Positions 1 through 11,100 of a stretch of 11,483 nucleotides of DNA are shown here, piece after piece. Source of the stretch: a virus (lineage: Duplodnaviria > Heunggongvirae > Uroviricota > Caudoviricetes); IMG/VR virus record IMGVR_UViG_2778261300_000001, positions 1-11,483 of that record; one strand, 5' to 3'. A program made the position numbers and the translations under genes. The notes under the pieces were generated by a model that saw nothing but the letters and a program-made list of their open reading frames with translations, made no database searches and was not told the origin of the DNA. Each line of letters starts with the position of its first letter. Position 1 is the stretch's first letter.

Positions 1-143
1 TGTTTACGGGGTTTTTTACTGGTTGATACTGTTTTTGTCATGTGAGTCACCTCTGACTGAGAGTTTACTCACTTAGCTGCGTGTCCACTATTGCTGGGTA
101 AGATCAGATCCAGCCTTATCTGGAGGACGGCAAATGCTTTCGC

Positions 144-500
144 ATGGTGCTTAAACCGTGGCGCGAGAGACGCAGTCTTTCCCAGAATGCACTCAGCCAC
201 ATGTGGTACAGCGAAATCAGTGAATACCTCATCAGCAAGGGTAAAACGTTCGCTACTCCAGCTTGGGTAAAAGATGCTCTCAAACACACATATCTCGGTT
301 ATGAAACCAAAGACCTGGTTGATGTCGTAACCGGTGATATCACCACTATCCAGTCGTTACGCCATACCTCCGATCTTGATACCGGAGAGATGTATGTCTT
401 CCTGTGTAAGGTTGAAGCCTGGGCGATGAATATTGGTTGCCACCTGACTATTCCACAGAGCTGCGAGTTTCAGCTGCTGCGCGACAAGCAGGAGGCGTAA
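144..500 (+). CDS. ybcN: NinB/Orf-family protein (YbcN-like recombination / DNA base-flipping protein), 118 aa from ATG 144
   Basis: Translation contains RSLSQN..(L/M)W, which resembles the RSLDQNRKLW motif of lambda NinB. It sits immediately upstream of ninE and its stop (498-500) overlaps the ninE ATG as TAATG. The start is uncertain: the in-frame stop at 99-101 forbids any longer N-terminus, and the GGAGG at 123-127 is 16 nt from the ATG. Confidence 0.6.
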   Translation: MVLKPWRERRSLSQNALSHMWYSEISEYLISKGKTFATPAWVKDALKHTYLGYETKDLVDVVTGDITTIQSLRHTSDLDTGEMYVFLCKVEAWAMNIGCHLTIPQSCEFQLLRDKQEA

Positions 501-670
501 TGGCTACACCGCTTATTCGTGTCATGAACGGACACATCTACAGAGTACCAAATCGTCGTAAGCGTAAACCTGAGCTGAAGCCATCCGAAATACCAACACT
601 GCTCGGATATACCGCCAGCTTGGTTGATAAAAAATGGTTGCGACTGGCAGCAAGGAGGAGTCATGGCTGA
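500..670 (+). CDS. ninE: NinE-family protein, 56 aa
   Basis: [56 protein letters not shown] is basic and similar in length and C-terminal W-LRR-AR pattern to lambda NinE. GGAGG lies 4 nt upstream of the ATG at 500. The 77-aa ORF in the track (437..670) is an upstream extension of the same frame. Confidence 0.75.
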   Translation: MATPLIRVMNGHIYRVPNRRKRKPELKPSEIPTLLGYTASLVDKKWLRLAARRSHG

Positions 671-953
671 TTTGAGAAAAGCAGCGCGTGGTCGGGAATG
701 CCAGGTAAGAATCCCTGGCGTATGTAATGGCAACCCTGAAACGTCTGTACTGGCACATATCCGGCTGACTGGATTGTGCGGCACCGGTACGAAACCGCCA
801 GACCTGATTGCCACCATTGCATGTTCTGCCTGCCACGACGAAATCGACCGCCGCACGCATTTTGTTGACGCTGGATATGCAAAAGAATGCGCGCTGGAAG
901 GTATGGCGAGAACGCAGGTTATCTGGCTGAAAGAGGGGGTAATTAAGGCGTGA
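663..953 (+). CDS. ybcO: YbcO-like putative nuclease, 96 aa, Cys/His-rich
   Basis: [64 protein letters not shown]... matches the DLP12 YbcO protein as I remember it. AGGAGG precedes the ATG at 663, and the gene overlaps the ninE stop by 8 nt. Confidence 0.8.
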
Positions 954-1312
954 ATACTTACCACATCACACTACCCTGGCCGCCGAGCAATAACCGCTAC
1001 TACCGCCATAATCGAGGGCGCACGCACATCAGCGCAGAAGGGCAGGCATACCGCGATAACGTCGCCCGAATCATTAAAGGCTCAATGCTGGATATCGGTC
1101 TGGCTATGCCTGTGAAAATCCGCATTGAGTGCCACATGCCGGATCGCCGTCGCCGTGACCTGGATAATCTGCAAAAAGCCGCTTTTGACGCACTCACTAA
1201 AGCAGGTTTCTGGCTGGATGATGCTCAGGTCGTTGATTACCGTGTTGTGAAGATGCCTGTTACCAAAGGTGGGAGGCTGGAACTGACCATCACCGAAATG
1301 GGGAATGAATGA
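950..1312 (+). CDS. rusA: RusA Holliday-junction resolvase (crossover junction endodeoxyribonuclease), 120 aa, GTG start
   Basis: [26 protein letters not shown]...[55 protein letters not shown] is near-identical to E. coli RusA as I recall it. The start codon is GTG at 950, overlapping the ybcO stop as GTGA. Confidence 0.9.
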
Positions 1313-1449
1313 TGTTTGAGTTTTATATGGCAGAACTTCTTCGCCACCGCTGGGGGCATCTGCGCTTATATCGTTTCCCCGGTTCTGTTTTGACCGATTA
1401 CCGAATACTGAAGAATTACGCCAAAACCCTGACAGGAGCAGGAGTATGA
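1309..1449 (+). CDS. ylcG: Small protein YlcG-like, 46 aa (absent from the ORF track because it is short)
   Basis: The ATG at 1309 overlaps the rusA stop as ATGA. Translation is [46 protein letters not shown], with TGA at 1447-1449. Position between rusA and Q matches DLP12 ylcG. Confidence 0.6.
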
Positions 1450-1534
1450 AGTCAGAGATAACAATCAACTAATACTGTTTTGTTGATTTTTGCTTGTAAT
1501 TGGCGTTCTGGTCTGATTTTTGTGGAGTAAGTTG

Positions 1535-1918
1535 ATGCGTGATATTCAGATGGTTCTTGAGCGTTGGGGAGCGTGGGCGGCTAATAATCATGAAGATGTG
1601 ACCTGGTCGTCCATTGCCGCCGGTTTTAAGGGATTAATTACTTCAAAAGTAAAATCTCGCCCGCAATGTTGTGACGATGACGCGATGATCATTTGCGGGT
1701 GCATGGCCCGTCTGAAAAAGAACAACAGCGATTTGCACGATTTATTAGTAGATTATTATGTAGTCGGTATGACATTCATGTCACTGGCAGGTAAGCATGG
1801 CTGCTCTGATGGTTATATCGGGAAAAGGTTACAGAAGGCTGAGGGCATAATTGAAGGGATGTTAATGGCATTAGATATCCGGTTAGAGATGGATATCGTT
1901 GTTAATAACTCTAATTAA
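1535..1918 (+). CDS. quuD: Late-gene antitermination protein Q (QuuD-like), 127 aa
   Basis: [35 protein letters not shown]...[16 protein letters not shown] matches the DLP12 Q-like antiterminator. GGAG lies 7 nt upstream of the ATG at 1535. The track ORF from 1520 uses an upstream TTG. Confidence 0.85.
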
Positions 1919-1951
1919 TATGCCAATTGTTTACTAAAAATTATTAAAAAT

Positions 1952-1969
1952 GGGGCGTTGAGACGCCCC
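1952..1969 (-). terminator. Hairpin (7-bp GC-rich stem GGGGCGT/ACGCCCC, 4-nt loop) followed on the minus strand by a U-rich tract; likely distal terminator for nmpC
   Basis: Stem 1952-1958 pairs with 1963-1969. The plus strand has A-runs on both sides, so on the minus strand the hairpin is followed by AUUUUUAAUAAUUUUU. Confidence 0.5.
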
Positions 1970-2057
1970 CAAAAATAAAGGGTAATATATAACAGAAGGT
2001 TTATATAGTTAGAAGCAAGGTTGTGCTTCTAAAGGAAGTGGCTTGAGGGAGCCACTT

Positions 2058-2097
2058 ATATGTTGGGGAGGCAACGCCTCCCGCAACATATCTTTTT
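2058..2097. terminator. Strong intrinsic terminator hairpin (about 15 bp stem with a 1-nt bulge, loop AAC) plus CTTTTT on the plus strand; sits between the quuD 3' end and the nmpC 3' end and may act in both directions
   Basis: 2058-2072 (ATATGTTGGGGAGGC) pairs with 2076-2091 (GCCTCCCGCAACATAT), with T-run 2093-2097. A second 8-bp hairpin lies at 2036-2057 (AAGTGGCT/AGCCACTT). Confidence 0.65.
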
Positions 2098-2107
2098 CGT
2101 AATCAGA

Positions 2108-3205
2108 TTAGAACTGGTAAACCAGACCTACAGCAACGATGTCATCAGTGCTTACACTGAGTGCTTTAGTGAAGTCATTTTTGTCAAGCAGGTTGATTTT
2201 GTAATCAACGAAAGTAGACATATTTTTGTTGAAGTAATAGGTTGCACCTACATCAACATATTTGACTAAGTCCTGATCGCCCCATACTCCAAGATCCTTA
2301 CCTTTAGATTGCAGGTAAGCAACGGACGGACGCAGACCGAAATCGAACTGATATTGTGCAACAGCTTCGAAGTTTTGGGCTTTATTAGCAACGAAGTGAT
2401 CAGCAAATACAGTCATATTCTGGGTTTCAGAATAGGTAGTGGCCAGGTAAATGTTGTTAGCGTCATATTTCAGACCTGCGGCCCAAACTTCTGCATTTTT
2501 ACCGGAAGCAAATACTTCAGGAAGAACTTTCCCTGCATTAACTTGAGTGTCGGTACGATCAGATTTCGCATAAGTTGCACCGATACCGAATCCTTCGTAT
2601 TCATAGGTAGCAGAGAAACCGAAGCCATCACCGTTACCTTCAGTGTAGTTATCGAAATCGCTACGATCGTTTTTGCCTTGGTACTGAGCAGCAAAGTTCA
2701 GACCATCAACCAGACCAAAGAAGTCGTTGTTACGATAGGTTGCAACACCAGTTGCACGTTGAGTCATGAACACGTCGGTTTGAGTCCAAGTGTCACCACC
2801 GAATTCTGGCAGGACGTCAGTCCACGCACCGATGTCGTATGCTACACCGTAGTTACGGCCGTAATCGATGGAGCCGTAGTCACCGAATTTCAGGCCAGCG
2901 AAGGCAAGACGGGTTTTATCTTTGGAGGAACCTTGAGATTCAGCGCGGTTGCCTTTGAATTCATATTCCCACTGACCGAAACCAGTCAGTTGATCGTTGA
3001 TTTGGGTTTCACCTTTGAAGCCAAGACGGGCATAAGTAGTATCACCATCATCTGCATCATTGGAGGAGAAGTAGTGCTTAGCATTAACTTTCCCGTACAG
3101 ATCCAGCTTGTTACTGTCTTTATTATAAATTTCAGCTGCCTGAGCAGACATCGCCATCAGTACTGATGCAGCTACAGCAGAAATTGCCACTGTTAATTTT
3201 TTCAT
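2108..3205 (-). CDS. nmpC: General bacterial porin of the OmpC/OmpD/NmpC family, 365 aa including signal peptide; prophage moron
   Basis: Signal peptide [23 protein letters not shown], then [17 protein letters not shown]... and C-terminal ...VAVGLVYQF, the typical porin beta-barrel terminus ending in F. I take the ATG at 3203-3205 as the start rather than the upstream extension in the track. The reading frame is uninterrupted. Confidence 0.9.
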
Positions 3206-3632
3206 CGTGAGCCCTTTTTTTGAACTATTATTAAAAAATGATGTCACTGCGCGATAAATATTCATCTAATCAATGTGATTATTTCAAGATGTAAGTTTTG
3301 GTTTCTCGTTTGATTTGTGAAGTAGATCTCTATTTTTATCTGAACTTTTTTCTATCGAATCCTATTCATGGCTCTTGGCTGAATAAAAATAAATCTATTA
3401 GCCAATTTATATTAACGGCTGTTATTTATAAGCGCTCTATAATTTGAAGGTTCAATTTAAACCGGCTAAAAATAACACTGGAAATTATTTGTTGGTTATT
3501 TGTTGAGATTTGCTTATGTATTTGTAGTGGTGTTTTCAATACTCGGTAGCATTCTCGCAAATATCATTTAGTGGTTTACGTACGTAAAAAATTGGTTATG
3601 CTGTTAAGAGTGGTTACTTCGTCACACAGCTT
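3206..3632. promoter_or_regulatory. AT-rich intergenic region: nmpC promoter and 5' leader on the minus strand, probably also late-promoter / essD upstream signals on the plus strand
   Basis: About 570 bp without a credible ORF between the divergent nmpC start and essD. It is AT-rich and contains a tandem 11-bp repeat at 3485-3506. Confidence 0.5.
3485..3506. repeat. Tandem direct repeat, 2 x 11 bp (TTATTTGTTGG / TTATTTGTTGA)
   Basis: Read directly from the sequence at 3485-3495 and 3496-3506. Confidence 0.6.
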
Positions 3633-3665
3633 AAACCCGCCGTCGAGCGGGTTTTTCCATTTTTT
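3633..3665 (+). terminator. Intrinsic terminator (8-bp stem AAACCCGC/GCGGGTTT, 6-nt loop, T-runs); candidate tR'-like terminator upstream of the lysis cassette
   Basis: Stem 3633-3640 pairs with 3647-3654, followed by TTTTT CCA TTTTTT. It lies about 110 bp upstream of the essD start. Confidence 0.6.
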
Positions 3666-3777
3666 GAGTCTCGATATTAGCTGATAACCCAATACCTGAG
3701 TTATTCACTGACTCCGAGTCTGTTACGTTTCGTAGTATTCCCTCAATTTACACCCGCTTTGTCTGCGAGGTGGGGTT

Positions 3778-3993
3778 ATGAAATCCATGGATAAGTTAAC
3801 AACGGGTGTCGCCTATGGCACCTCAGCAGGTAGTGCCGGGTACTGGTTTTTACAGCTGCTAGATAAAGTCACGCCCTCACAGTGGGCGGCAATTGGAGTG
3901 CTGGGTAGCCTGGTATTTGGCCTGCTGACGTACCTGACAAACCTTTATTTCAAGATTAAAGAAGATAAGCGCAAGGCTGCGAGAGGTGGATAA
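3778..3993 (+). CDS. essD: Phage-21-type pinholin S (holin/antiholin with dual-start motif MKSM), 71 aa
   Basis: [71 protein letters not shown] matches the S21/EssD pinholin: two transmembrane helices, Met1 and Met4 dual starts, charged C-terminus. RBS is GAGGTGGGG. Confidence 0.9.
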
Positions 3994-4490
3994 TGCCTCC
4001 ATCATTACGAAAAGCTGTTGCTGCTGCTATTGGTGGCGGGGCTATTGCTATAGCATCTGTGTTAATCACTGGCCCAAGTGGTAACGATGGTCTGGAAGGT
4101 GTGAGACATAATCCTTACAAAGACATAGTTGGTGTATGGACTGTATGTTACGGGCATACAGGAAAAGACATCATGCTCGGTAAAACGTATACCAAAGCAG
4201 AATGCAAAGCACTCTTGAATAAAGACCTTGCCACTGTCGCCAGACAAATTAACCCGTACATCAAAGTCGATATACCGGAAACAACGCGCGGCGCTCTTTA
4301 CTCATTCGTTTACAACGTGGGTGCTGGCAATTTCAGAACATCGACGCTTCTTCGCAAAATAAACCAGGGCGATATCAAAGGCGCATGTGATCAGCTACGT
4401 CGCTGGACATATGCTGGCGGTAAGCAATGGAAAGGTCTCATGACTCGTCGTGAGATTGAGCGTGAAATTTGTTTGTGGGGTCAGCAATGA
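3993..4490 (+). CDS. rrrD: SAR endolysin (lysozyme with N-terminal signal-anchor-release domain), 165 aa
   Basis: N-terminal SAR-like hydrophobic, Gly/Ala-rich segment [18 protein letters not shown], followed by a lysozyme-like domain. The start overlaps the essD stop as TAATG. Matches R21/RrrD. Confidence 0.9.
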
Positions 4491-4951
4491 ACAGAGTAAC
4501 CGCGATTATCTCCGCTCTGGTTATCTGCATCATCGTCTGCCTGTCATGGGCTGTTAATCATTACCGTGATAACGCAATCGCCTACAAAGAGCAGCGCGAT
4601 AACAAGGCCAGTGAACTGGAGAAGGCGAACGCCACCATCGCTGACATGCGGAAGCGTCAACGTGATGTAGCAGAACTCGACGCCAGATACACAAAGGAGC
4701 TTGCTGATGCTAACGCGACTATCGAAAGTCTTCGTGCTGATGTTTCTGCTGGGCGTAAGTGGCTGCGCGTCAAAGCTGTCTGTCCAGACATGCATAAAAT
4801 CACCGCCGCCTCCGGCGTGGATGATGGCACCAGCCCCAGACTTACTGACACCGCTCAACGGGATTATTTCACCCTTAGAAAGCGGATTGAAACCAGTGAT
4901 AAAATGATCCGAGGCTTGCAGCAATACATTCGCACGCAGTGTGTAAGATGA
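4487..4951 (+). CDS. rzpD: Rz-type i-spanin (inner-membrane spanin subunit), 154 aa
   Basis: [26 protein letters not shown]... is an N-terminal transmembrane helix followed by a charged, coiled-coil-like periplasmic domain. The start overlaps the rrrD stop as ATGA. Confidence 0.85.
4707..4907 (+). CDS. rzoD: Rz1-type o-spanin lipoprotein, 66 aa, embedded in the +1 frame of rzpD
   Basis: [23 protein letters not shown]... has a lipobox (VSGC) and a proline-rich mature part ([26 protein letters not shown]) typical of Rz1. GGAG lies 8 nt upstream of the ATG at 4707. It is wholly nested within Rz. Confidence 0.75.
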
Positions 4952-5331
4952 GCAATCTTTGCTAATTAGCCATGAAATAGATAAATATCAGGCCAACGAT
5001 GATTAGTGCCAGGCATCCTAATTGGTCAGAATGGCTGGCATTTGATCGTCTTGCTCTTCTTGCAGTTGATTGGACAGCCCTCTGTCCTCGACTTCCTCTT
5101 GGCATTCCTCTCATTTATTCTCTCTCAACATTGATATTGAACTGACAGATGATAATTATTTCATGAAAGTGGTATCTCGTTGATTTGATTACGCTACATA
5201 GTCGCCGGATTTTCGCATTTATCGGCATCGGGCGGTGCAAAATTGGCATAATCGAAACGTAGAGTTTTTGGCTGACAACAGCATTAGCGGTCACCCGGAG
5301 AGTGTTGTGAACATGTTAATTACATGACGCT

Positions 5332-5652
5332 TTAGATGCATCGACATTTGATGATGCTTGTCAGACCTGTCATTTTCTTTGCTTCATTTTCAACATTGAG
5401 GAAGTTGGTTGAGCATATTTTTTGATAATCTCCAGTTGTGAATCCTGTTTTATCGATCTTGCGTTTCAAGGGATTAATCGTTTTGCAAGATGCTCTATGG
5501 ATTCTGGTAAAGCGTTCGTCAGATTTATTACCTTTACCTCTGGTTCGCTTCAATGCATTGACAACATATCCGTCTGGATTATCGCCAAGCCAATTACGAT
5601 AGTCTGATTCACTCTCAGTCTGAAGGTCACTTCTGAATACCTTTATGGACAT
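5332..5652 (-). CDS. Hypothetical protein, 106 aa, basic, 4 Cys (possible zinc ribbon); moron in the bor position between the spanins and cos
   Basis: Minus-strand ORF with GGAG 7 nt upstream of the ATG at 5652 (the track's 112-aa version starts at an upstream ATG at 5670). Translation: MSIKVFRSDLQTESESDYRNWLGDNPDGYVVNALKRTRGKGNKSDERFTRIHRASCKTINPLKRKIDKTGFTTGDYQKICSTNFLNVENEAKKMTGLTSIIKCRCI. It lies in an AT-rich island opposite to the flanking phage genes. I cannot place it in a family. Confidence 0.5.
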   Translation of the reverse strand: MSIKVFRSDLQTESESDYRNWLGDNPDGYVVNALKRTRGKGNKSDERFTRIHRASCKTINPLKRKIDKTGFTTGDYQKICSTNFLNVENEAKKMTGLTSIIKCRCI

Positions 5653-5796
5653 GAAGATACTCCTGTGCATTTATGGTACGAAGAAATAGCAAAAGTATTT
5701 TTACCGTAAATTGCGAATCTACAAAAGCAAAACAATGCGTAATATCAGAGTGAATATTCTGCCTTTAATGTGGGTCCTTCTGATGACCTGAGCTCT

Positions 5797-5817
5797 CACG
5801 GGGCGGGAGCGTCGCGG
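5797..5817. other. cos-like sequence (possible degenerate cosN) about 170 bp upstream of the Nu1-type start codon
   Basis: CACGGGGCGGGAGCGTCGCGG resembles the lambda cosN region ACGGGGCGGCGACCTCGCGGG: 17 of 21 positions match by eye, and 8 of 12 within the cohesive-end core. Its position relative to the Nu1-like start mirrors lambda (cosN about 190 bp upstream of Nu1). Confidence 0.35.
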
Positions 5818-5897
5818 AAAAAGGCTAGTTTTTGCATTTTTATCGGCCACCATCATCTTTGCATCTTATTGATTATTAATGGTTATTTGTTTTTTGT

Positions 5898-5927
5898 ATG
5901 TCGAATTGAGCGGTTTTTGTTCGACAT
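5898..5927. repeat. 8-bp inverted repeat ATGTCGAA ... TTCGACAT with 14-bp spacer, between the cos-like site and the Nu1-type start (candidate terminase-binding cosB-type element)
   Basis: Read from the sequence: 5898-5905 and 5920-5927 are exact reverse complements. A function as a protein-binding site is inference. Confidence 0.4.
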
Positions 5928-5986
5928 CGAACGCGTTTTCTTAAAGTTGTTCGCACGATGCATGTTTAAAGCTCTCCGGAGGAAAT

Positions 5987-7366
5987 ATGGATCATGAGTT
6001 GAAAAACTTGGTGCTGAATATTAATCAACTGGCGGCTTTATCTGGTCTGCACCGCCAGACTGTCGTGGCAAGACTGAAAAACATTCGTCCCGCTGGTGGA
6101 CATGACAAACTCAAGCTATATCGGTTGACCGATATTCTGACTGAATTTATGGGGTTACCACCGCCGGTTGCTGAGGGCGAAATGGATCCACATGAACGCA
6201 AAGCCTGGTATCAGTCTGAACGTGAGCGTCTTAAGTTCGAACAGGAAACGGCACAACTCATTCCGGCCAGTGATGTCAGACGGGAGTTTGCCATCTGGGC
6301 AAAAGCGGTCGTGCAGGTGCTGGAGACATTACCGGATATTCTGGAACGTGACTGCGGCCTGCAGCCTGCCGCTGTGAGCCGTGTTCAGTCCATTATTGAT
6401 GATCTGCGCGATCAGATAACCGAATCCCATCTCGGCAAGGAGCTGCTGGAAAAAGTCGAGCTAACGGAGGATAACGCCAGCAAACTGGAGGAGTTTTCGA
6501 AAGAGTGGCAGGACGCTAACGATAAGTGGAATGCTATGTGGGGCGTCAAAATTGAGCAGACCAAAGACGGCAAACATTATGTCGCGGGTATTGGCCTCAG
6601 CATGGAGGACACGGAAGGAGGCAAGCTGAGCCAGTTTCTGGTTGCCGCTAACCGTATCGCGTTTATTGACCCGGCAAACGGGAATGAAACGCCGATGTTT
6701 GTGGCGCAGGGCAATCAGATATTTATGAACGACGTGTTCCTGAAGCGCCTGGCGGCCCCGACCATTACCAGTGGTGGAAATCCACCGGCATTTTCCCTGA
6801 CATCAGACGGAAAGCTGACCGCTAAAAATGCGGATATCAGTGGCAGTGTGAATGCGAACGCCGGGACGCTCAACAATGTCACGGTAAATGAAAACTGTAC
6901 GATTAAGGGCATGCTGGAGGCGACCCAGGTCAGAGGGGATTTCGTTAAAGCTGTATCAAAAGCCTTCCCGAAAAAAGTCGGTACGTGGGGTAACACGGAA
7001 ACACCAAACGGTACGGTTACAGTCACCATCAGCGATGATCATAACTTTGACCGCCAGATTATTATTCCGCCCATTATTTTTAACGGTATAGCGTATGACG
7101 ATCCGGGGAGCGGAAATAACCCAGGAGGCACGCGATACACGGGTTATGGTTTTGAAGTTCGCAAAAACGGCGTATTAATCGCATCCAGAGAAACTAAAGG
7201 GGCCATTCCCGGTAGTTACAGTGCAGTTATTGATATGCCTAGTGGTGGTGGTAGCGTCACTCTGGAGTTTAAGATTTTCCAGAAAGGCAATCAGGGGGCA
7301 GGCAATATCACCGACTGTACGGTGATTGTGACCAAAAAAGCGGCTTCCGGCATCAGTATTCGTTGA
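5987..7366 (+). CDS. In-frame chimeric ORF (459 aa): small-terminase (Nu1-type, HTH) N-terminal region fused to the C-terminal receptor-binding region of tail tip / host-specificity protein J; deletion scar of the morphogenesis region
   Basis: N-terminus [32 protein letters not shown]... is HTH-like and sits where Nu1 would be, downstream of the cos-like site with GGAGG RBS. From about residue 185 onward ([86 protein letters not shown]...) it is near-identical to the lambda J C-terminal region as I remember it. It is followed by lom, as J is in lambda. Confidence 0.8.
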
Positions 7367-7388: not shown

Positions 7389-7415
7389 GGCGTCAGGAAT
7401 GACGCCTTTTTTATT
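7389..7415 (+). terminator. Intrinsic terminator after the J-derived ORF (stem GGCGTCA/TGACGCC, loop GGAA, T6)
   Basis: 7389-7395 pairs with 7400-7406, followed by TTTTTTATT. Confidence 0.65.
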
Positions 7416-7436
7416 GCAGAAAAGCGAGAGGTAATT

Positions 7437-8036
7437 ATGCGTAAAGTTTGTGCAGCCATTTTGTCCGCAGCCATTTGTCTGGCCGTATCCGGTGCGCCTG
7501 CATGGGCGTCTGAACATCAGTCCACGCTGAGCGCGGGGTATCTTCATGCCCGGACCAACGTTCCCGGCAGTGATGATCTGAACGGGATTAACGTGAAATA
7601 CCGTTATGAGTTTACGGATACGCTGGGGCTGGTGACGTCATTCAGCTATGCAGGAGACAAGAATCGCCAGCTGACCCATTACAGCGATACCCGCTGGCAT
7701 GAAGATTCCGTGCGTAACCGCTGGTTCAGCGTAATGGCGGGGCCGTCTGTGCGCGTGAATGAATGGTTCAGCGCGTATGCGATGGCGGGTGTGGCTTACA
7801 GCCGTGTGTCGACTTTCTCCGGGGATTATCTCCGCGTAACTGACAACAAGGGGAAAACGCACGACGTGCTGACCGGAAGTGATGACGGTCGCCACAGCAA
7901 CACGTCTCTGGCGTGGGGGGCTGGCGTGCAGTTTAACCCGGCCGAATCCGTGGCCATTGATATTGCTTATGAAGGCTCCGGCAGTGGCGACTGGCGCACT
8001 GACGGTTTCATCGTGGGTGTCGGTTATAAGTTCTGA
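7437..8036 (+). CDS. lom: Lom outer-membrane protein (Ail/Lom/OmpX family beta-barrel), 199 aa with signal peptide
   Basis: Signal peptide MRKVCAAILSAAICLAVSGAPAWA, and a C-terminal ...GFIVGVGYKF beta-barrel terminus. It sits between J and stf as in lambda. RBS is AGAGG. Confidence 0.9.
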   Translation: MRKVCAAILSAAICLAVSGAPAWASEHQSTLSAGYLHARTNVPGSDDLNGINVKYRYEFTDTLGLVTSFSYAGDKNRQLTHYSDTRWHEDSVRNRWFSVMAGPSVRVNEWFSAYAMAGVAYSRVSTFSGDYLRVTDNKGKTHDVLTGSDDGRHSNTSLAWGAGVQFNPAESVAIDIAYEGSGSGDWRTDGFIVGVGYKF

Positions 8037-8100: not shown

Positions 8101-11100
8101 ATGGCAGTAAAGATTTCAGGTGTACTGAAAGATGGCACAGGAAAACCGGTACAGAACTGCACAATCCAGCTGAAAGCAAAACGTAACAGCACCACGGTGG
8201 TGGTGAACACGCTGGCCTCAGAAAATCCGGATGAAGCCGGGCGTTACAGTATGGACGTTGAGTACGGTCAGTACAGCGTTATTCTGTTGGTGGAAGGATT
8301 CCCGCCGTCACATGCCGGGACCATCACCGTGTATGAAGATTCCCGACCCGGTACGCTGAATGATTTTCTCGGTGCCATGACGGAGGATGATGCCCGTCCG
8401 GAGGCACTGCGCCGCTTTGAACTGATGGTGGAAGAGGTGGCGCGTAACGCGTCCGTGGTGGCGCAGAACACAGCAGCCGCGAAGAAGTCAGCCAGCGATG
8501 CCAGCACATCAGCCCGTGAGGCGGCAACCCGTGCGACTGATGCTGCAGGCTCAGCACGCGCAGCCAGTACGTCAGCCGGACAGGCCGCGTCGTCGGCTCA
8601 GTCAGCGACTTCCAGCGCAGGAACGGCATCAACAAAGGCCACTGAAGCATCAAAAAGTGCTGCCGCTGCAGAGTCCTCAAAAAGCGCGGCAGCTACCAGT
8701 GCCAGTGCCGCGAAAACGTCAGAAACGAATGCGGCAGCGTCACAAAAATCTGCAGCCACTTCTGCATCCGCCGCGACCACAAAGGCGTCAGAAGCTGCCA
8801 CCTCAGCCCGGGATGCGGCGGCCTCAAAAGAGGCAGCGAAATCATCAGAAACGAACGCATCATCAAGCGCCAGTAGTGCCGCTTCCTCGGCAACGGCGGC
8901 AGGAAATTCCGCGAAGGCGGCAAAGACGTCCGAGACGAACGCCAGGTCTTCTGAAACGGCAGCGGGACAGAGTGCCTCAGCTGCGGCAGGCTCAAAAACA
9001 GCGGCTGCGTCGTCTGCCAGTGCAGCGTCAACAAGTGCCGGGCAGGCCTCAGCCAGTGCTAGCGCCGCCGGAAAATCGGCAGAAAGCGCCGCATCGTCCG
9101 CTTCAACAGCCACAACGAAGGCTGGCGAAGCCACTGAACAGGCCAGTGCAGCAGCGAGGGCTGCTTCCGCAGCGAAGACATCCGAAACGAACGCGAAAGC
9201 GTCGGAAACCAGCGCAGAATCCTCAAAAACGGCTGCCGCATCGTCCGCCAGTTCGGCGGCGTCATCGGCATCATCTGCGTCTGCTTCAAAAGATGAGGCG
9301 ACCAGACAGGCGTCAGCAGCAAAGGGCAGCGCCACGACGGCATCCACGAAGGCGACAGAGGCTGCTGGCAGTGCGACGGCGGCAGCACAGAGCAAAAGTA
9401 CGGCAGAATCCGCAGCAACGCGCGCTGAGACAGCGGCAAAACGTGCAGAGGATATTGCATCCGCCGTGGCGCTTGAGGATGCGAGCACGACGAAAAAGGG
9501 GGTAGTACAGCTCAGCAGTGCGACCAACAGCACGTCTGAAACGCTGGCGGCAACGCCAAAGGCAGTAAAAGCAGCCTATGACAATGCAGAGAAACGTCTG
9601 CAGAAAGACCAGAACGGTGCTGATATTCCCGACAAGGACCGCTTCCTGAGTAACATTAATGTTTACAGCAAAGGTGAAGTGGATCAGAAAAAGGGGATGC
9701 GATACGTTGTGGTAAATGCCCCGGCGGGTGTCCAGGAAGGTAAATATTATCCGTTAGTGATAAAAAGGAATGACAGCCATCGGGCATCCCGCGTTGTCAT
9801 TTCAACGCCAAGTCGCTCAGCTAATCACAGAATGAATAATTGTGAGTTTAATGGTTTTGTTTGCGCAGGCGGCTGGACGGACCGGGGTAGCTATGCCTGT
9901 GGTATGTTCTGGGCTTATTCATCATCGGAACGCGCTATTCATTCCATTCTGATGAGTAATAAAGGCGATACCGTAGACAGCGTATTCTATATAGAAGGTG
10001 GGGCATTTCCCGTAGAGGTCTTTTTAGAAGAAGGTCTCTCCGTTACTGCACCTGCTTCTGATTATATTGTTGCTGAAACGACTTATAAATTTGGCGCAAC
10101 TGATCCTTATTCTGAATCAGTTGCGGTAAATTTAATTTTAGATTTTAAACAAGGTAATGGATTTTATAGTTCGTATCCTGTTTTGAGTAAGTCAGACATT
10201 AGCGGGAATAAGATTTACGCTAATGATGAAGTTATTGTCCGTAGTCAGAACGCGTTAAGGATGATTGCAGGTGATTACGGTGTCATATGGCGAAATGATG
10301 GAGCAAATACTTACTTGCTCATGACTGATAAAGGCGACCAGTACGGTGGCTGGAACGGTCTTCGACCATTTGCAGTAAATAACGCAACAGGTGAAGTGAC
10401 GATCAATACACCACTTAATTCTCCTAAGGGGATTAAGGGAAATTCTGATACAGCTACGAAACTTCAGACAGCAATAAAAATATCTGGTGTTTCGTTTGAT
10501 GGTTCTACTGATATCACTTTAACCGCTGCGCATGTTGCTGCTTTTGCCAGAAGAGCAACGGATACGTATGCCGATGCGGATGGGGGCGTTCCCTGGAATG
10601 CCGAATCAGGCGCTTACAATGTCACCCGCTCTGGCAACAGCTATATTCTGGTTAACTTCTATACCGGAGTCGGAAGTTGCCGGACCTTGCAGATGAAGGC
10701 GCATTACAGAAATGGTGGTCTGTTCTACCGTTCTTCAAGAGACGGTTATGGTTTTGAGGAAGACTGGGCAGAAGTTTATACCTCGAAAAATCTTCCACCA
10801 GAAAGCTACCCAGTCGGCGCACCAATCCCGTGGCCATCAGATACCGTTCCGTCTGGTTATGCCCTGATGCAGGGGCAGACTTTTGACAAATCTGCTTACC
10901 CGAAACTTGCAGCCGCTTATCCGTCAGGCGTGATCCCTGATATGCGTGGCTGGACGATTAAGGGCAAGCCCGCCAGTGGTCGTGCCGTATTGTCTCAGGA
11001 ACAGGACGGCATTAAATCGCACACCCACAGCGCCAGCGCATCCAGTACGGATTTGGGTACGAAAACCACATCGTCGTTTGATTACGGCACTAAATCCACG

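Follow-up and report, generated by a model that had tools for sequence, protein, structure and literature searches.

Does a reading frame that opens as a phage small terminase and closes as the tail-tip protein J record an accident of prophage decay, or a fusion kept for the sake of its product? The frame lies in the window, the whole stretch of 11,483 nucleotides analysed here, which is the entire contig NOMQ01000055.1 of the Escherichia coli draft assembly GCA_002518655.1. The evidence collected below makes it very probable that the frame marks a deletion in a defective lambdoid prophage of the DLP12 type, a scar left by an illegitimate, short-homology event that stayed in frame by chance. 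What gives the scar added interest is that the breakpoint at one end is recurrent and unexplained.

Host prophage and gene content

The contig of 11.5 kb has both ends inside the prophage, leaving the rest of the element and of the genome out of view, the chromosomal site of DLP12 (argU side and ybcY-appY-ompT side) included. The features relevant to the analysis are the following:

144-4951, plus strand: DLP12-type late region with ybcN, ninE, ybcO, rusA, ylcG, quuD, essD, rrrD and rzpD (Pfam families of the called genes)
2108-3205, minus strand: OmpC/NmpC-like porin, 365 aa, gene intact and flanked by quuD and the lysis genes
5797-5986, plus strand: upstream flank of the small-terminase gene, with 98.9% identity to PhiR40_1 18274-18463 (local blastn)
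5978-5982, plus strand: Shine-Dalgarno sequence GGAGG, 4 nt before the ATG (sequence read)
5987-7366, plus strand: chimeric open reading frame, 459 aa, with an ATG start (open reading frame listing, Pfam)
5987-6418, plus strand: small-terminase part, codons 1-144 of a 163-codon DUF1441-type gene (PhiR40_1 identity, Pfam)
6413-6418, plus strand: junction microhomology CAGATA, codons Q143-I144, with the J side at lambda 17965-17970 (three-way comparison)
6419-7366, plus strand: J part, phage 434 J residues 823-1137, ending at J's own stop
7389-7416, plus strand: terminator-like hairpin and T-run after the chimeric frame
7437-8036, plus strand: intact lom gene (Ail/Lom outer-membrane protein), 199 aa
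8101-11483, plus strand: stf, the side tail fibre gene, running off the contig end, at least 1127 codons

Judged by its genes, the window carries the late region of a DLP12-type defective lambdoid prophage. The gene order (ybcN-ninE-ybcO-rusA-ylcG-quuD, porin, essD-rrrD-rzpD) matches that of the DLP12 loci L008-L010, and window positions 105-4885 share 94% DNA identity with the DLP12 locus L011. The following stretch, 4886-5796, has no counterpart in L011 and stands in place of bor-ybcV-ybcW-nohD; neither of its two small reading frames (4999-5145 on the plus strand and 5332-5652 on the minus strand) has a Pfam match. The prophage is a mosaic, DLP12-like in its left part and PhiR40_1-like in the terminase region. 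The segment 5797-5986 is where cos would be expected in such phages, making it a putative cos region, and it contains a weak terminator-like hairpin at 5918-5933. The hairpin downstream of the chimeric frame occupies the position at which a terminator is annotated behind J in phage 434.

Two further observations concern the flanking genes. The prophage holds both the porin gene and a 434-type J receptor-binding head; OmpC is the receptor used by phage 434. Within the side tail fibre gene, positions 8440-9510 encode about 350 residues rich in Ala, Ser and Thr, with a GC content of 0.62 and an AT skew of 0.39; no tandem repeats were detected there by TRF, and the segment yields long spurious reading frames in several other frames on both strands.

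Two gene fragments in one reading frame

The product of the chimeric frame is the RefSeq protein WP_097483429.1, named 'DUF1441 family protein'. Pfam assigns DUF1441 to residues 10-146 (E = 1.9e-42), Phage_Tail_Tip to residues 167-294 (E = 4.4e-34) and Ig_GpJ_C to residues 323-458 (E = 2e-25), while PHROGs labels the first part 'terminase small subunit' and the remainder 'tail fiber'. Together with BLASTP these searches agree on a small-terminase N-terminus fused in frame to the C-terminal region of J, as the original prediction had proposed. Aligned separately, residues 1-144 lead to the small terminase of PhiR40_1 and residues 145-459 to the J protein of phage 434, and the intact relatives PhiR40_1 and mEp460 hold both genes in the same order and on the same strand. 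As both halves are near-identical to genes that lie about 17 kb apart in intact phages, the chimera is not a product of chance. Between the terminase part and the J part no head or tail-shaft gene is present, consistent with the predicted loss of the head-tail block. A single-sequence AlphaFold2 model of the 459-residue chimera has a mean pLDDT of 41, too low for the model to be of use.

The small-terminase part is 100% identical to the 163-residue PhiR40_1 protein and lacks only its last 19 codons. The match to DUF1441 (PF07278) spans profile positions 1-143 of 147, and phrog_141, 'terminase small subunit', is matched at E = 1e-70. The start codon and ribosome-binding site are the native ones of the PhiR40_1 terminase gene. 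In PhiR40_1 and mEp460 the DUF1441-type gene stands directly upstream of the large terminase; in the window, the large terminase is absent and codon 823 of J comes next. The label 'Nu1' originally given to this N-terminus has to be replaced, since the domain is DUF1441 and not the lambda Nu1 family (PF07471). BLASTP of the chimera N-terminus against lambda Nu1 returned nothing at E<=100, and neither protein matched the other's Pfam family even at E<=10; at that threshold the chimera N-terminus gives only DUF1441 and a weak HTH_30, and lambda Nu1 matches Phage_Nu1 at 2.5e-100. The DUF1441 part is a functional analogue of Nu1. The HTH_30 match (residues 11-40) scores 17-20 bits against a cut-off of 27, and the helix-turn-helix assigned to the N-terminus in the original prediction is suggestive only. 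The C-terminus of lambda Nu1 binds the large terminase subunit, and the terminase C-terminus is incomplete in the chimera, where 144 of 163 residues are left.

The J part was predicted to be recognisable from about residue 185; it actually starts at residue 145, 40 residues earlier. Residues 145-459 correspond to 434 J 823-1137, within a BLASTP alignment (residues 134-459) that is 93% identical. Against lambda J the BLASTP alignment runs to residue 1131 at 63% identity, with the J-derived part starting at lambda 823; the two are near-identical as far as residue 990 or so, and the divergence lies in the receptor-binding domain. Residues 811-1131 of the PDB entry 8iyk_J are matched at E = 1.7e-124, and lambda J structures cover chimera residues 133-458. 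Following the domain order, domain names and shaft-helix limits (809-840) published for J (PMC11101478), the J part comprises a clipped alpha-helical shaft, the straight beta-prism fibre at the centre and the 434-type receptor-binding domain. The C-terminal fibre and receptor-binding domains PF09327 and PF12421 are both present, and the N-terminal hub and FNIII domains are absent, the J part beginning at residue 823 of 1137. The breakpoint, at lambda J 821-822, falls inside the first, upper helix of the shaft. A fusion placed at a domain border was considered as a sign of design and rejected: the break lies within this helix, off any domain border, and therefore shows no sign of a designed fusion.

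The joint and the missing block

At the DNA level, homology to the terminase gene runs to nt 6418-6421 and homology to J begins at 6413-6414, which places the joint within the originally predicted bracket of 6290-6545. A search for microhomology at the junction found the 6-bp CAGATA, which is present in both parents in the same codon phase, as part of eight matches in nine positions (CAGATAGCC in one parent, CAGATAACC in the other). The terminase parent reads ...GATCAGATA and continues with GCCCTG, the J parent reads ...GGCCAGATA and continues with ACCGAA, and the window reads ...GATCAGATAACCGAA. In mEp460 coordinates the missing stretch extends from about 460 to 17409, or about 16.95 kb, in keeping with the separation of roughly 17 kb that had been proposed.

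The simplest reading of this arrangement is a single deletion event. Illegitimate recombination would have paired CAGATA near the 3' end of the small-terminase gene with CAGATA in J (lambda codons 821-822), removing about 17 kb with the large terminase, portal, protease, capsid, tail tube, tape measure and tip genes as well as J codons 1-820. Because both hexamers stand in the same codon phase, the frame stays open through J's own stop. What remains is cos-side DNA, a terminase stub, and then the J remnant, lom and stf.

An assembler that merged the terminase gene and the J gene of different prophages could in principle have produced the same joint, given a draft assembly, a contig that ends in prophage repeats and the several lambdoid prophages carried by each E. 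coli genome. The 6-bp overlap at the joint is far under any assembler k-mer, however, and the protein is a RefSeq non-redundant entry: UniRef100 lists 13 E. coli members for WP_097483429.1, of which one contig was found, recorded in two samples. Analogous joints at the same J nucleotide also occur in complete genomes, and an assembly artefact can be regarded as extremely improbable.

Occurrence and related scars

The joint of the chimeric frame was found in none of 5426 complete E. coli genomes. Other prophages carry other scars: a nohD-lom joint (L008), a joint of terS-251 with the protease gene accompanied by a second joint 6813^J (L009), IS1203 adjoining a J fragment (L010), and the large terminase joined to J (L002). 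A terminase-J protein of 773 aa (P0006) also occurs and may be the L002 product. As the scars differ across these loci, loss of the morphogenesis block must be both frequent and heterogeneous, and the scar in the window is one rare variant of this frequent decay.

A second in-frame fusion between a small terminase and J, P0001, is a Nu1-J chimera of 484 aa (EFG5708792.1 and others) present on 14 contigs and annotated as 'DUF1983 domain-containing protein'. It occurs in DLP12-type and Qin-type prophages, with lom and stf coming next. One genome has the identical 484-residue protein in a Qin-type setting with cspB, cspI and gnsB (L014), and others have it in a DLP12-type setting (L011-L013), a distribution implying that recombination has carried the scar from one resident prophage to another. 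Separately, a related defective prophage in strain K_EC180 (L001, 12551-14450) carries reverse-transcriptase and SLATT-domain genes just past its tail-fibre genes, a pair that looks like defence cargo.

Recurrent breakpoints in J and nu1

The J-side breakpoint of the window, lambda 17970 (GATA^ACC), recurs with five other partners. These are the lambda-type Nu1, lambda gene C, a Rac-like reading frame and upstream J, together with stf in a joint that keeps the other side of the site; the loci sharing the breakpoint are L011-L014, L069, L120 and L135-L139. IMG/VR was scanned with the 31-mer just right of the joint, and the 120 loci listed were examined. Nearly all of them have normal J upstream of the 31-mer, while in two of the 120 listed foreign DNA begins at the very same nucleotide, from gene C at 5207 (L069) and from a Rac-like prophage reading frame (L120). 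None of the 120 listed loci has a joint elsewhere in the 45 nt upstream of the breakpoint. Scans that left out intact J recovered an internal J deletion (L138) and further copies of the earlier joints. The Rac-like^J joint is present in 11 of 5426 complete genomes, and the joint to stf (L139) keeps the left side of the J site. No J-site joint was found among species-representative genomes, and the window's own terminase-side breakpoint (terS nt 432), considered as a third hub, gave no other joint in IMG/VR. The pattern of joints indicates that the J-side end of the deletion is a preferred breakpoint of several independent deletions and not a random one. Across the 120 listed IMG/VR loci, the codon before the breakpoint in intact J is AAG in 55, CAG in about 45 and CTG in 3, and the surrounding 40 nt are almost invariant.

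Reuse of the J site bears on the number of steps behind the scar. An earlier deletion may have run to the J hot spot and been followed by further loss on the terminase side, a history in two or more steps that would suit a site reused with at least five other partners and a class of prophages in which two or three scars are common (L009, L069, L138, L139). Only a single joint is visible in the window, however, collinearity with intact phages extends on both sides as far as the joint itself, and the second event would have to end at the very same nucleotide; a stepwise origin is thus judged unlikely. Because the J breakpoint is a reused site, a single deletion stays no more than the simplest reading.

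A second breakpoint behaves in a similar manner. Position 697 of lambda (L003), in nu1 (CTGATA^CCGGGG), forms the left end of deletions that reach at least 17 different sites further downstream, in loci L008, L140, L141, L201, L221, L234, L241 and L260-L271. In E. coli C (L140) it is joined to J nt 635 (lambda 16140), a site named 'J631' from the start of the BLAST match, in strain EC130 to the 3' end of stf, and in strain EC416 to lom. An untargeted sample, consisting of the 70 nt that follow a Nu1 30-mer in IMG/VR loci, contained six partner types exactly after CTGATA versus one joint elsewhere (lambda 720), and a metagenome scan added nine more partners. Every partner that could be placed is downstream of the site with unchanged orientation, the range extending from gene A (2246) and gene E (6595) to J, lom and stf, and no reciprocal joint keeping the right side of Nu1-697 was found in IMG/VR. 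The joint of Nu1-697 to 16140 was seen in the laboratory strain E. coli C as well as on two IMG/VR contigs and one metagenome contig (L131, L151, L269), and on a third IMG/VR contig (L095) J homology begins at the same 16140 position.

Taken with the J site, these joints mark lambda 17970 and Nu1 697 as two preferred, largely one-sided breakpoints of many deletions, whose independence is inferred from their differing partners. No description of either breakpoint was found in the full-text literature searched.

Candidate causes of the breakpoints

The sites joined at the two hubs share a simple shape. TA stands at the crossover in all 22 partner sites for which the intact sequence was recovered, a partner list that comes partly from searches aimed at lambda 697 and 17970. 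The pattern G-N-TA-N-C, which was spotted post hoc, is present in 12 of the first 16 sites examined, whereas it surrounds roughly 10% of the TA dinucleotides found across these phages, and C occupies position -4 in 13 of 24 half-sites. At flanking N positions that are unlike in the two partners, each side keeps its own base, and the exchange therefore falls within the TA. Five other joints at the same loci (microhomologies TGC, AT, TAT, TAT and TTCC) stand outside the pattern and look like ordinary microhomology events. Tentatively, and at somewhat less than an even chance, these features may reflect a specific enzymatic or structural cause, in which a sequence-directed break-and-join activity, of a sort not known to have been described for these sites, trims head and tail genes from prophages in place of random loss at microhomologies.

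Several candidates for such a cause were tried and rejected. Choice of partner by best homology does not account for the sites, as the partners rank in the top 0.1-8% of positions by likeness to the hub, yet are not the best matches. A hairpin or cruciform at the J site is not indicated by a DNA fold z-score of 0.40. The quasi-site of a Pin-type invertase (26 bp, ...AAACC NN GGTTT...) has no match in the window with one mismatch or fewer, and the published Pin repeat CCTTCTCCCAAACCAA (PMC12529663) is unlike GATA^ACC. A deletion adjacent to an insertion sequence was set aside, with no such element at any hub joint and the IS1203 of L010 at a different J position. Quinolone-type gyrase cleavage with a 4-nt stagger (^GNNC^) does not fit an exchange confined to TA, since gyrase cuts before G, scission before guanine having been mapped by Topo-Seq (PMC6379681). 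By eye, none of RusA (which cuts 5' of CC), RuvC, the lambda Int overlap, Chi, a rolling-circle nick or cosN likeness fits both hubs. A type I-E CRISPR PAM was likewise assessed by eye; AAG precedes the J site and nothing comparable is found at Nu1.

Fate of the chimeric product

If made, the protein would be cytoplasmic and would carry the DNA-binding and oligomerisation part of a small terminase, without its C-terminal tail, followed by the trimeric fibre and the receptor-binding head that end a 434-type J; the hub by which J is anchored in the tail would be missing. Transcription of its gene would occur only as part of the late operon, through antitermination by QuuD. DLP12 itself retains nu1 and the start of A in K-12 (PMC3945230), and DLP12 late genes are reported to be active in that strain (PMC7918800). 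From its missing parts, the chimera would be unable to act as a terminase or as a tail tip, and it is most likely without a selected function.

The same architecture could have been domesticated in defence against other phages, either as a terminase decoy that binds cos of related phages yet cannot recruit the large terminase, or as a blocker of the receptor through the 434-type J head. Such a role would make use of a frame open to the J stop behind a native ribosome-binding site, a nearly complete DUF1441 domain and complete fibre and receptor-binding domains, and it has a parallel in the second, independent in-frame fusion (P0001, 14 contigs, DLP12 and Qin) and a precedent in StfE2, a chimeric tail-fibre protein from cryptic prophages that blocks phage adsorption (PMC12529663). 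The distribution of the joint argues in the other direction, however, as it is missing from all 5426 complete genomes, and in L069 and L120 the same J nucleotide is joined to other partners out of frame, so the site was not chosen for coding. An in-frame outcome has a 1-in-3 chance, the breakpoint cuts a J helix, and by inspection the N-terminus carries no export signal with which to reach an outer-membrane receptor. A domesticated anti-phage fusion is consequently considered quite improbable. With a rare joint, a cut helix and out-of-frame joints at the same nucleotide, the chimera is most likely a passive scar and not a selected fusion.

Taken alone, the chimera is one more ordinary scar of prophage decay, and it explains why the DLP12-type element in the window cannot make particles. 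It also serves as a warning for annotation, as a 459-residue 'DUF1441 family protein' consists of two gene fragments. More broadly, the deletions that strip lambdoid prophages of head and tail genes do not end at random, and a large proportion of the joints observed here falls at two positions. Should a defined activity cause the hubs, the domestication of E. coli prophages would gain a mechanistic component that can be tested genetically, and the hub sites might be used to predict or engineer prophage inactivation.

Comparison with known systems

Among the closest known systems are those to which the two halves belong. Compared with the DUF1441-type small terminases of mEp460, cdtI, Gifsy-2 and PhiR40_1-like phages, residues 1-144, the start, the ribosome-binding site and the upstream DNA are the same as in PhiR40_1, whereas the last 19 residues and the large-terminase gene that should follow are missing. 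The last 315 residues of the chimera match lambda gpJ (PDB 8IYK, 8XCG, 8XCJ) and 434 J, from which the chimera differs in having neither the hub, nor the two FNIII domains, nor the first 12 residues of the shaft, and therefore cannot be built into a tail tip.

At the level of the whole element, the cryptic lambdoid prophages DLP12, Qin and Rac, with their nohD/nohA and J remnants, can be compared. The window shares with them the DLP12 gene order, a packaging stub and the tail-fibre end without head or tail-shaft genes, but its stub is of the DUF1441 type in place of a lambda-type Nu1 homologue and is fused in frame to J. The P0001 fusion is also an in-frame joint of a small terminase to J, in which J starts at the same residue (...AALDEL/ITESHLGK...). 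It differs in having a true Phage_Nu1 domain (PF07471) at the N-terminus, with the break at lambda nt 697, in its microhomology, which is GATA (CTGATA if the J allele was CTG), and in a slightly different J allele.

The StfE2 protein provides a further comparison. It is made by PinQ inversion in prophage e14 and blocks adsorption of phage T2 (PMC12529663), and like the chimera it is a receptor-binding protein of composite origin encoded in a cryptic prophage. Its formation is a reversible inversion at Pin sites with a known effect against T2, whereas the chimera described here would be the product of an irreversible deletion at a joint without a Pin-type site.
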